Shown here one piece after another: positions 12,210 through 62,944 of a stretch of DNA of 64,000 nucleotides. Numbering within the stretch: position 1 is the first letter of the stretch; each line of letters starts with the position of its first letter. Under the pieces are notes generated by a model. It was not told where the DNA came from. It did no database searches and saw only the letters and a list, made by a program, of their open reading frames with translations. The DNA is from a virus. The stretch is from the IMG/VR virus record IMGVR_UViG_3300028423_000861, positions 32,001-96,000 of that record. The stretch is one strand, 5' to 3'. Both the position numbers and the translations under genes were made by a program.

Positions 12210-12285
12210 TGGTGCCCCATGTGGGATTTGAACCCACGCACTCAAGATTTTAGAGATCCTGGCTCTACCGCTGAGCTAATGGGGC
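12210..12285 (-). tRNA. Amber suppressor tRNA, anticodon CUA
   Basis: GCCCCAT TA GCTC AGCGGTA GAGC C AGGAT CT CTA AA ATCTT GAGTGC GTGGG TTCAAAT CCCAC ATGGGGC A CCA. Confidence 0.9.
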
Positions 12286-49076: not shown

Positions 49077-49102
49077 AAAAAAACCCTGCACGATTGGCAG
49101 GG
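49077..49102 (-). terminator. Intrinsic terminator closing the giant RNA unit
   Basis: CCCTGC CAATCGT GCAGGG TTTTTTT. Confidence 0.8.
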
Positions 49103-49113
49103 CATTTGTGTTG

Positions 49114-49370
49114 AAAATTAGCAGACCATATTTCGAATTGCCCTATCCGGCCAGCACAAGTTGCTATCTTGTGCCTGGGCATGGCGGGTAACAAGTGTCT
49201 TCTGACAACCTTTATTAGCTAGATAAAAGTTATGCCTGTCAGTGCTAACCATCCGGGACAATAATAAATTTTCGACGCATTGGCCCCCTCCCGCCATGTC
49301 GTCCGACACGCTCCAAATGATCCCCAGCCCTCAGGCGGTCACCAAGTGTGGCGCTGTCTTTCCTGTGTTG
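49114..49370 (-). ncRNA. 3' structured RNA domain complementary to 51278-51381
   Basis: Local hairpins (GCACAAG/CTTGTGC, CTGACA/TGTCAG) and four nested long-range complements. Confidence 0.6.
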
Positions 49371-49371
49371 G

Positions 49372-50115
49372 TTATTTTCTTCCCCGAACCCAACCATTCG
49401 GTATATCACTATCTTTCTGTATTCGTTTATTTTTAACACCATCTGTTATCCAAACAGAGCCATACGAATAATTATTTGCACCAGTCATTGCGTTCGAAAT
49501 TTTTTGCTTTGTTTCAGTAGACAATTTATTGCCTTTTCTTGATTCACTCATCTTTTGTCGGGTTGCAGTCGATTTCTTTTTACCTACCAACGCTTCTGAC
49601 AATTTCTTACGATGCTCTTGAGTAATAACCCTTGGCTTTGGCTTCACTGATTTGTTATAGTATGGAATTCCTTGGCATCTTTTTGACATATAATGTTGCT
49701 CAAATGCCGAAACACTTATCTCATTCTGACATTTTAAGCAACATATTCTGTTATGCTTTTTTCCTTTAAATCCTGATGGTCGTTGTTTAGCTTTTTTACT
49801 TATTTTATCTCGAACTTCTGTAGTAAACAAGATTCCTGTATTAATTGAATTATTGTAAAAGGTATTTCCTTCAAATATTTCTTTTTTGTGTTCAGTTAAT
49901 AACTGTCTTTCTAAATTTATTGCTTCATAAGCATTGTCAAAGACTTGAATGATCTCACGTTTCCATTTAATATCAGGATCTTTCCAGTCTTTCCAAAATT
50001 CCTCTGAGCTACTTGATGAAATATATCCATCGTCAGTAGTTCCTTTGTGATACCCTATATATCGTTTGCCTAGTGTATTAGACCATTCATACACAAAATA
50101 TTCAACACGTTTCAT
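49372..50115 (-). CDS. Homing endonuclease, GIY-YIG-like with NUMOD3 repeats
   Basis: FVYEW...RYIGYH...GYISSS...E...FYN; HRKKLSEA/TRQKMSES/TKQKISNA repeats; own ATAAATA promoter. Confidence 0.8.
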   Translation of the reverse strand: MKRVEYFVYEWSNTLGKRYIGYHKGTTDDGYISSSSSEEFWKDWKDPDIKWKREIIQVFDNAYEAINLERQLLTEHKKEIFEGNTFYNNSINTGILFTTEVRDKISKKAKQRPSGFKGKKHNRICCLKCQNEISVSAFEQHYMSKRCQGIPYYNKSVKPKPRVITQEHRKKLSEALVGKKKSTATRQKMSESRKGNKLSTETKQKISNAMTGANNYSYGSVWITDGVKNKRIQKDSDIPNGWVRGRK

Positions 50116-50159
50116 AAATAAGCCTTTTAACTGTATACTTATTTATGTTAATAAGATGG

Positions 50160-51381
50160 AAATAGTGAGATTACCTAAATTTCCGCGGTTGCCTTTGGAC
50201 CGTACCGTAAACCTTGCGAGTCTACGTTAATCCGTTATCCACTAAGCGCCTTTCAGCTGACTTAGTATCAACCAGTGCTGCCTAGTTTAAAGTGGTGGCA
50301 TTTCCACTATCGTTACACGCTACTCGTCCTTTGATCTTCCGCCTGCCTTGCGAGCAGTTCAGAGTCGCTAAACCCTTACGTCTTCTCTCCGAACAAACAC
50401 TTCCGCCTTGCGAGCTTCCATGCACGACATTCACCGTAGTGTGTCGTATTAAGCACCTTTAACGTGCAACTGAGGCAGTCTTTGCGTTTTTGCTATAATG
50501 CATCTGCAGGATTTGAACCCACACATTCAGTTCCTAAAGACTGACGCTCTACCATTGAGCTAAGTTGCTAACCTACCAAGACGTGCTGCCTCTTGTTGCT
50601 TCGCATCCTTTTGGGAAACGAAATACAACACGCCTAAATGCCTTTCTCCTTGCGGGATACTAAACGTCTTTTCAAGTATCCAGCTACCTCACTAGTCGGT
50701 AACTCTCAACTTTAAAGATAACAAGTTGCCCTCCTGCGCGAACAGTCGGACTATTTGTTTACCCGTTAACATTCTGTCTTCGCTAGATTGGAGTGCATAG
50801 CTTTGGCTCCCACCAAATTGTAACCTCGCCGGTTGGCCCTGGTTACTATCCTTTCGGGCATTTGCTCTAGCTTAGGACTTACCTCGCTCTTCACAAGGGG
50901 TGCGCTACGGCTTATAGGAATACATCCGTCTGCCACCTAGTCCGGGCTTGCGTAAATGGACCATTGCTGGCGCAAGTGCGTAGGCTTCCTTGCTTTGGCA
51001 GTGTTACCACTGTTATCCTCCTGGACGTCACGCCGCCCATGTTCTTGTCTTAGATGATGAGTGTGCAGACATGTTGGGATTTAACCAACGAGTCGATTGC
51101 CTGGACATTTGTGTAAGCAAAGGGAAAGGAAATTGACAATCAACACCATCACCTTTGTCTGCACACACGACATCTAAGACCATTTTACAATAATCGGCTT
51201 CTATGTTTTTATATACACACCACTCGCATTTTGATATTATCTCAACGTTTTGACTGCATGGATCTTCCATCGCGGCGCAGGAAATTTCCTTTCAGGCCCG
51301 ACGCAGCGGATTGTCCCGCGATTCCATGACCAGGCAGTGTGCATGTAAAAACATAGTTGCCTATGTTGGTCTGCTAAATTT
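50160..51381 (-). ncRNA. Giant structured ncRNA with GOLLD-like core (5' limit of core uncertain)
   Basis: About 1.2 kb with no credible ORF; repeated GCAAG-capped hairpins; embedded tRNA-like domain. GCGUGUUGUAUUUC, AAAGGUGCUUAA and terminal GUAAUCUC resemble GOLLD as recalled, not searched. Confidence 0.65.
50499..50569 (-). tRNA. tRNA-like domain with 8-nt anticodon loop (CUUUAGGA), no CCA
   Basis: GCTC AATGGTA GAGC, TCAGT/ACTGA stem, GTGGG TTCAAAT CCTGC; mismatched acceptor stem. Confidence 0.65.
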
Positions 51382-51409
51382 TTAAAGAGCGTGTTGAGCT
51401 TTGCTCAAC
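51379..51409 (-). promoter_or_regulatory. Hairpin followed by a boxA-like antitermination element
   Basis: GTTGAGC AAA GCTCAAC then CGCTCTTTAAAAA (rrn boxA consensus TGCTCTTTAACA). Confidence 0.65.
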
Positions 51410-51419
51410 TTGTTTTACC

Positions 51420-51448
51420 AATATAGTGGTTTTATTTATGTTCGTCAA
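51420..51448 (-). promoter_or_regulatory. Sigma70-type promoter for the giant RNA
   Basis: TTGACG-17 bp-TATATT. Confidence 0.75.
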
Positions 51449-51466
51449 CCACTTTTTTCAACTTTT

Positions 51467-51790
51467 TTAGTTAAGCTTGCGATTTTTGCTTTCGCCAGTC
51501 AGCTTTTCGAAAAAGAGCCCGACAAGCTCTTCATCACTCATTTCTTCAACAACATCTTCATCAAGATGGCTGAGGTCTTCAAGCATTTCGTTCAACGCTT
51601 GGAGTTCACGATCAGACATGTCATCCGGATCCAGCTTGTAAGGTTCAGCCTTTTCAAGGAGCGAACCATCATTGGCCATTTGTTCAAGCTCTGCAATGAA
51701 CTCGTCAAGTTCTTCCTGGGTGCCATCAAATTCATCAAGAGCACCCGGTGCAAACGTAATCTTTATTTTATCTTCTTTGTCATCTGTCAT
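51467..51790 (-). CDS. Hypothetical acidic protein
   Basis: ITFAPGALDEFDGTQEELDE. Confidence 0.7.
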   Translation of the reverse strand: MTDDKEDKIKITFAPGALDEFDGTQEELDEFIAELEQMANDGSLLEKAEPYKLDPDDMSDRELQALNEMLEDLSHLDEDVVEEMSDEELVGLFFEKLTGESKNRKLN

Positions 51791-51828
51791 TGTTTAATCA
51801 ATCTATACAAAAATCTCTAAAGAGTCAA

Positions 51829-52287
51829 TTATTGTGTTTTATCCAAGACGTTTTGATTATTTTGGATATTCCATGCAGGTTGGATATAATTGATGAGGAA
51901 ATTTTCTTCAACATCAATTAAACTCATCGTCTGAGACACGGCCCCAGAAAACAAATCAATATGTCTGACCTCACTGTTACAACCATAAATCATCACTCGA
52001 TCGTTTTCAAGGGTTTCGCGCAATTTATAGGCTTTGGTAATACCTGTAACGCTGTTGCCGCGCCACCCACCACGATGTTGTTTAAACCTCTGCTCAAGTC
52101 CTTTTCCGGCCTTGCCCACATAAATTACTTCATCATGGGCTACCCAAAGATAAACCTGTGGAATCTTTTGTTTGAATTTGTCTTCTTGGATAACAAAATC
52201 AACAAGATCTCGATCATTGATAAAGATTTCACCAGCATATTCAAAATATAATTTTTTTATTATTTCAGAAGCAGATTTTTGATTCAT
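51829..52287 (-). CDS. GIY-YIG nuclease domain protein
   Basis: VYLW...IYVGKA...RFKQH...EE..LI...PAWN. Confidence 0.8.
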   Translation of the reverse strand: MNQKSASEIIKKLYFEYAGEIFINDRDLVDFVIQEDKFKQKIPQVYLWVAHDEVIYVGKAGKGLEQRFKQHRGGWRGNSVTGITKAYKLRETLENDRVMIYGCNSEVRHIDLFSGAVSQTMSLIDVEENFLINYIQPAWNIQNNQNVLDKTQ

Positions 52288-62854: not shown

Positions 62855-62944
62855 TGGCGGAGGGCCCGAGAATCGAACTCGATGCGCTTTCACGCACAAT
62901 CGGTTTAGCAAACCGTTCCAGGCACCAGCCTGATTGTACCCTCC
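62855..62944 (-). tRNA. tRNA-Ser(GCU) with long D-stem and tetraloop
   Basis: CAGGC TGGT GCCTG D-arm; CGGT TT GCT AA ACCG; variable arm; GCCA. Confidence 0.85.

Follow-up and report, generated by a model that had tools for sequence, protein, structure and literature searches.

The E. coli rrn antitermination complex comprises NusA, NusB, NusE, NusG, SuhB and S4. The elements of rrn leaders come in the order boxB-boxA; in Enterobacteriaceae a boxC, dispensable for complex formation, lies 18-19 nt after boxA, and in the rrn model boxA anchors the leader for leader-trailer pairing, as in the leader-trailer helix of 16S (PMC10250234). The functional boxA consensus of Baniulyte et al. 2017 is GYTCTTTAANA, and boxA is also known outside rrn operons, at suhB (PMC5725501). 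Further non-rrn cases are the boxA that precedes CRISPR arrays (Stringer et al. 2020, as cited in PMC7862264) and the early boxA of phage T7 (Savalia et al. 2010, as cited in PMC3709561). In phage λ, boxA has a shortened form, CGCTCTTA, and needs N on a specific boxB pentaloop.

GOLLD is among the largest non-coding RNAs of bacteria and phages; it forms an RNA-only nanocage, and its function is not known (PMC12286853). Its production in cells is not addressed in print. In a full-text literature search, no paper was found that connects GOLLD to boxA, to antitermination or to Rho, and the words leader and terminator are absent from the 2025 cryo-EM paper on GOLLD.

We analysed a 64,000-nt stretch of DNA (the window) belonging to a 142-kb IMG/VR virus record from an uncultured large phage, with an estimated completeness of ~60%. 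Nearly all large ORFs of the window lie on the minus strand. The original prediction had placed a leader resembling that of rRNA operons in front of a giant phage non-coding RNA. This RNA is indeed a true GOLLD (RF02032, 181.9 bits against a gathering cut-off of 150, 50636-50162 on the minus strand, model positions 1-416, Rfam). The whole GOLLD RNA occupies 50162-51046 (-), from a conserved 5' block starting at about 51046 to the Rfam 3' domain at 50636-50162.

Promoter, hairpin and boxA in the window phage

A promoter-hairpin-boxA arrangement is present on the minus strand, between an upstream 107-aa ORF ending at 51467 (-) and GOLLD. The sigma-70-type promoter (51420-51448, -) is made of a -35 element TTGACG (51448-51443), a 17-nt spacer and a -10 element TATATT (51425-51420). 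It fits the consensus at 10 of 12 positions, which gives it the joint best score among the seven promoter-like sites found in 49500-52000, and its position predicts a transcription start at ~51413. Eleven nt past the -10 element, and about 4 nt past the predicted 5' end, begins hairpin 1, GTTGAGC-AAA-GCTCAAC (51393-51409, -), with a stem of 7 bp. It is separated by a single A from boxA, CGCTCTTTAAAAA (51379-51391, -), itself followed by TTTAGCAGACCA. A boxB-like hairpin is thus present 5' of boxA, ending 1 nt before CGCTC and 2 nt before the GCTC core, and the promoter ends 29 nt upstream of boxA, the start position itself being predicted. This hairpin and the boxA behind it had been described exactly in the original prediction, as the minus-strand coordinates attest. 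Hairpin 1 was also considered as a terminator and rejected: on the minus strand no U run follows it and its position is downstream of a promoter, and the plus-strand terminator call made at the same place has no plus-strand gene to serve.

The boxA core GCTCTTTAAAA (51390-51380, -) is an exact fit to the gammaproteobacterial consensus GYTCTTTAANA. Over the whole 142-kb record the consensus has one match, the window boxA, and the word GCTCTTTAA occurs once within the window. The sequence following boxA is TTTAGCAGACCAA (51378-51366, -).

For comparison, the rrnB sequence of E. coli K-12 was fetched. Its leader, given correctly in the original prediction, contains TGCTCTTTAACAATTTATCAGACAATCTG and reads ...GCGGCAC TGCTCTTTAACAA TTTATCAGACAATCTGTGTGGGCAC; the phage 22-mer GCTCTTTAAAAATTTAGCAGAC is identical to it at 20 of 22 positions. 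The 16S-23S spacer of rrnB has TTTGCTCTTTAAAAATCTGG after a hairpin, and here the phage sequence GCTCTTTAAAAA is identical over 12/12 positions (11/12 with the leader copy). When the K-12 chromosome was searched with the 22-mer, allowing up to 3 mismatches, seven matches were obtained, each with 2 mismatches and all of them in rrn leaders; the reversed 22-mer, used as a control, gave no match. Bacterial genome contigs were also scanned for a host: the exact leader 22-mer had no match, and a degenerate scan gave one chance match, on a Flavobacteriaceae MAG contig with neither rRNA nor hairpin. The pattern boxA-TTTANCAGAC in IMG/VR retrieved only enterobacterial rrn leaders at prophage edges. 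The window leader is a version of the proteobacterial type, with a resemblance to the rrn leader of E. coli that extends over 22 nt; the version in phages attributed to Bacteroidota has GTTCTTTGAAA.

The order of elements in the phage (promoter, hairpin, boxA) is that of rrn leaders, and as in E. coli boxA lies within ~30-40 nt of the -10 element, the 10 nt after boxA are similar (phage TTTAGCAGAC, E. coli TTTATCAGAC), and a long untranslated structured RNA follows. The differences from E. coli rrn are a single promoter in place of tandem P1/P2, a product consisting of GOLLD and a homing-endonuclease ORF rather than rRNA, and the fact that the element is borne by a phage. In addition, the GU-rich boxC (UCUGUGUGGG) is absent from the window leader, the sequence of which diverges from E. 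coli after TTTAGCAGACCA.

The leader, of ~370 nt, is structured; 375 nt separate the predicted start from the conserved 5' block of GOLLD. In the predicted fold (-123.9 kcal/mol, z = -5.3 relative to shuffles), the 5' hairpin is succeeded by a boxA region that stays unpaired and then by two long, imperfect helices (51047-51364, -), pairing 51364-51337 with 51220-51193 and 51180-51156 with 51071-51047; boxA is single-stranded in the centroid fold. A second hairpin, AACATAG-GCAA-CTATGTT (hairpin 2, 51350-51367, -), lies after boxA. The motif ACATGCACA, which follows hairpin 2 at 51350-51337, is common to the window and to four otherwise divergent leaders of related loci (L059, L080, L096 and L100), which points to a leader element, conserved between loci, in the interval from boxA to the 5' block of GOLLD. 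The sole ORF of the leader encodes 80 aa; no relative of it was present in the fetched loci, and it was treated as non-coding.

boxA at GOLLD and tRNA genes of related phages

We then asked whether boxA accompanies GOLLD in other phages. A pattern derived from the conserved GOLLD core retrieved 88 IMG/VR loci, grouped into 66 clusters plus the window, a sample biased by the fetching pattern. GYTCTTTAANA was picked before data inspection, and 668 kb of dereplicated GOLLD loci were scanned with it. On the GOLLD strand the 66 dereplicated loci contained 27 matches, against 2 on the opposite strand (p = 1.6e-6), the reversed pattern giving 0 and 4. Seventeen of the 27 sites, from 14 clusters, were located no more than 1.6 kb upstream of the GOLLD core, in a region representing 13% of the DNA (p = 1.5e-9). 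With a looser boxA pattern, and the window included, 37 sites were found on the GOLLD strand against 0 on the other. Among the dereplicated clusters having enough upstream sequence, 17 of 51 have a boxA within 1.6 kb, and a few further clusters have near-matches, such as GTTCTTTGATAG in L103. Some 60% of the sampled loci are without a boxA nearby: boxA is a frequent, non-obligatory feature of GOLLD. As many of these boxA-less loci have tRNA genes upstream, their leader may be situated further away.

The looser sites are placed close to stable RNA genes. For 32 of the 37, a tRNA gene or the GOLLD 5' end is found within 400 nt downstream, compared with 33% of random positions (p = 4e-11); these divide into 16 sites preceding the GOLLD 5' end and 16 preceding a same-strand tRNA gene. 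Thirteen tRNA genes start 20-40 nt after boxA, a spacing seen for 3% of random positions (p = 2.5e-11). Upstream, a promoter of the form TTGAYN-N16-19-TANWWT is present within 85 nt of 20/37 boxA sites (54%, against 2% of random positions), and 21/37 sites have a hairpin of 5 bp or more that ends no further than 5 nt before boxA (57%, against 27%, p = 1e-4). The design that recurs begins with TTGACA-N17-TACAAT; a stretch of ~25-32 nt comes next, containing a short hairpin whose loop is often GAAA or GCAA, and leads to G[CT]TCTTTAAAAA. When 15 leaders were aligned with MAFFT, the hairpin 5' of boxA proved to covary: all 5 pairs change on both sides, 0 of 500 shuffles reach the covariation score, and the score collapses in slid controls. 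The spacing between boxA and the conserved 5' block of GOLLD is variable: ~25 nt in L050, ~180 nt in L096 and ~370 nt in the window. In three IMG/VR loci (L045, L100 and L102), a single GOLLD is preceded by two promoter-hairpin-boxA modules spaced 370-730 nt from each other, reminiscent of rrn operons, where boxA is tandem or repeated (leader and spacer).

These data bear on one alternative, a chance resemblance in AT-rich DNA. The 9-mer alone would be expected 0.57 times per window; the specificity of the 22-mer for rrn leaders, the enrichment in strand and position and the covariation of the hairpin nevertheless refute this explanation, to which we assign practically no probability.

A second alternative is a nut site of the λ type. 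Of 19 GOLLD-proximal sites, 16 have a second hairpin, of at least 6 bp, starting 0-16 nt after boxA; for random positions the figure is 39%. This would fit a site where boxA, together with the following hairpin (51367-51350, GCAA loop in the window) or the preceding one, recruits a phage-encoded N-like antiterminator plus host Nus factors; antitermination would then be timed and under phage control rather than simply copied from the host rrn system. The sequence of λ nutL, CGCTCTTAAAAATTAAGCCCTGAAGAAGGGC, is moreover close to the window's CGCTCTTTAAAAATTTAGC, and the CGCTCTT...AAAAATT...A word of the window is nearly identical to its counterpart in nutL (CGCTCTTAAAAATTAAGCCC...). Like nutL and nutR, the window element is phage-borne, would lie in promoter-proximal RNA and has a hairpin 3' of boxA. 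However, the window boxA has the full rrn form CTCTTTAA rather than λ's shortened one, a hairpin is also present on its 5' side, the loops of hairpin 2 vary widely between loci, unlike a protein-specific boxB, the sites preceding tRNA genes leave no room for a second hairpin, and no N-like gene came to notice. A nut site is on this account unlikely.

Cultured phages were examined as well. Within 1.8 kb upstream of GOLLD, no boxA was present in seven cultured-phage loci found by BLAST. In whole-genome scans of five cultured GOLLD phages, a boxA on the GOLLD strand, further upstream, heads the stable-RNA array in 3 of 5. Phaeobacter phage MD18 (L108, MT270409.1) has TGCTCTTTGACAA ~100 nt before the first tRNA of a tRNA-GOLLD-tmRNA array; Xanthomonas phage X1 (L109, OQ427096.1) has GTTCTTTAAAAA 17 nt before tRNA-Trp, in a tRNA array upstream of GOLLD; and in Xanthomonas phage XacN1 (L110, AP018399.1), GTTCTTTAACAA comes after a promoter and ahead of tmRNA and GOLLD. 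As to the two others, phiCbK has no match genome-wide and Phosso has no boxA near GOLLD, its only match being far from it. In XacN1 and MD18, the tmRNAs adjoining GOLLD are permuted.

Proposed role of the leader

Taken together, the strand-specific boxA upstream of GOLLD and tRNA genes, the covariation of the hairpin, the promoters at a fixed distance and the three cultured phages support the borrowing of host rRNA antitermination put forward in the original prediction, and a functional rrn-type antitermination leader in front of GOLLD appears likely to us. As the window and related phages carry the promoter-hairpin-boxA module, their GOLLD and tRNA transcripts are probably made by the termination-resistant rRNA transcription machinery of the host.

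The sequence of events would be as follows. Host sigma-70 RNA polymerase, judging from the promoter, would start at ~51413, and the first 35 nt of RNA would present a 5' hairpin followed by single-stranded boxA, as sequence and fold predict. Given the exact fit to the consensus and its conservation, the host NusB-S10 dimer would be expected to bind boxA and, with NusA, NusG and SuhB, to convert the polymerase into a complex similar to rrnTAC. This complex would carry transcription across ~2.3 kb of mostly untranslated RNA without Rho-dependent or premature termination. It would further accelerate elongation and tether the 5' leader at the RNA exit channel, leading to co-transcriptional folding of the large GOLLD RNA. 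In related phages, the same device would head tRNA arrays. No phage-encoded NusB or NusG was found in the ~60%-complete record.

Two other roles can be weighed against this one. The leader could serve stability or processing, with no link to Nus factors: the 5' hairpin would block 5'-end-dependent decay, and mature GOLLD would be released by cleavage at the AU-rich CUCUUUAAAAAUUU, either by RNase E or, if the trailer takes part, by RNase III. In the window and its relatives the hairpin does lie within a few nt of the predicted 5' end, the boxA motif is AU-rich and single-stranded in the fold, and leader and trailer of the window are complementary (see below). An RNase E site, however, requires no fixed 11-nt word, whereas here one word is kept across loci with wholly different flanks; this word equals the published Nus consensus, and it recurs in alpha- as well as gammaproteobacterial phages, varying between G and A as expected. 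We hold this explanation to be quite unlikely.

Alternatively, boxA could be a Nus-dependent brake of the suhB kind, where bound NusB/S10 lowers expression or promotes Rho termination, thereby coupling GOLLD and tRNA output to free Nus factors. boxA is able to enhance Rho termination at suhB and hisG, but these cases work through blocked translation of a nearby start codon, while the genes that come next here are RNAs and no conserved ORF follows boxA. Such a brake is very improbable.

The rrn-type reading has parallels outside rrn operons in the boxA of CRISPR arrays, where the RNA is untranslated, and in that of T7, where a phage element is read by the host polymerase; both keep RNA polymerase processive on long RNAs. 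The targets here differ, being stable RNAs of phages (GOLLD and tRNA arrays), for which the literature search returned no earlier report of a boxA. If correct, the conserved boxA leader would point to the host polymerase making GOLLD-type RNAs in rRNA mode, and boxA-dependent control, known for rRNA, λ, T7 and CRISPR arrays, would come to include the tRNA arrays of phages. The finding also suggests that large phages compete with their host for Nus factors.

The transcription unit and a possible leader-trailer helix

Downstream of GOLLD lies a homing-endonuclease-like ORF of 247 aa with NUMOD3 (49372-50115, -). The two are not separated by any detected terminator, and a clear intrinsic terminator, GCCCTGC-loop-GCAGGGT followed by T7 (seven T), is located at 49077-49103 (-). 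We therefore define a unit of ~2.34 kb containing the leader, GOLLD, the homing-endonuclease ORF and the terminator.

Because the transcript contains more G than C and is highly structured, how far it is exposed to Rho is uncertain. A single stretch of the transcript is clearly C-rich and G-poor (51133-51050, -, C minus G = 14 in 80 nt). It falls within the second leader helix (51180-51047) and could be a Rho-loading site for the boxA complex to pass.

In E. coli the sequence directly after 16S, GTGCTCACACAGATTGTCTGATAGAAA, is the complement of the leader stretch 3' of boxA. The corresponding stretch of the window, AAATTTAGCAGACCA (51367-51381, -), starts in the last three bases of boxA and is similar to TTTATCAGAC, which in E. 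coli forms the base of the leader-trailer helix of 16S. As in E. coli, this strand beside boxA has a complementary trailer strand, TGGTCTGCTAATTTT (49114-49128, -), 11 nt before the terminator stem: 14 of 15 positions of 51381-51367 are complementary to 49114-49128, and 0 of 60 leader shuffles reach this score in the 3 kb downstream. When window leader and trailer were cofolded, the gain in energy was not significant, 9 of 100 shuffles reaching it. Among the sampled relatives the pairing, unlike that of E. coli rrn, shows no conservation: neither a comparison with shuffled nulls nor one of 15 relatives with a cross-locus null revealed it. In the window phage itself, the complementarity is probably real, and the strand beside boxA may pair with the trailer just before the terminator, in a helix like that of 16S.

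One could go further and suppose that the whole 16S-like frame has been rebuilt around GOLLD, with boxB, boxA and leader strand on the 5' side and trailer strand and terminator on the 3' side. From transcription through folding to excision, GOLLD would in this case be treated as an rRNA, and the rrn antitermination complex would act as a chaperone for the folding, and perhaps the co-transcriptional assembly, of the 14-mer cage RNA. We regard this extension as doubtful; if true, it would make GOLLD biogenesis dependent on the ribosome-assembly pathway of the host.

Some further features of the region were noted. Homing-endonuclease-like ORFs are present on both sides of GOLLD, one upstream (51829-52287, -) with weak GIY-YIG matches, and the downstream NUMOD3 one (49372-50115, -), which sits within the boxA-to-terminator unit. 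The GOLLD linker contains a tRNA-like insert (50569-50498, -) with an enlarged anticodon loop, which ARAGORN reads as a 4-base anticodon 'ttag'; if the loop is read as normal, UUA is possible, that is, an ochre-suppressor type. Elsewhere in the window are a CUA tRNA (12210-12285) and a tRNA-Sec-like gene (62859-62944). Together with the possible UUA insert, these genes raise the possibility of phage-borne suppressors acting on several stop codons.
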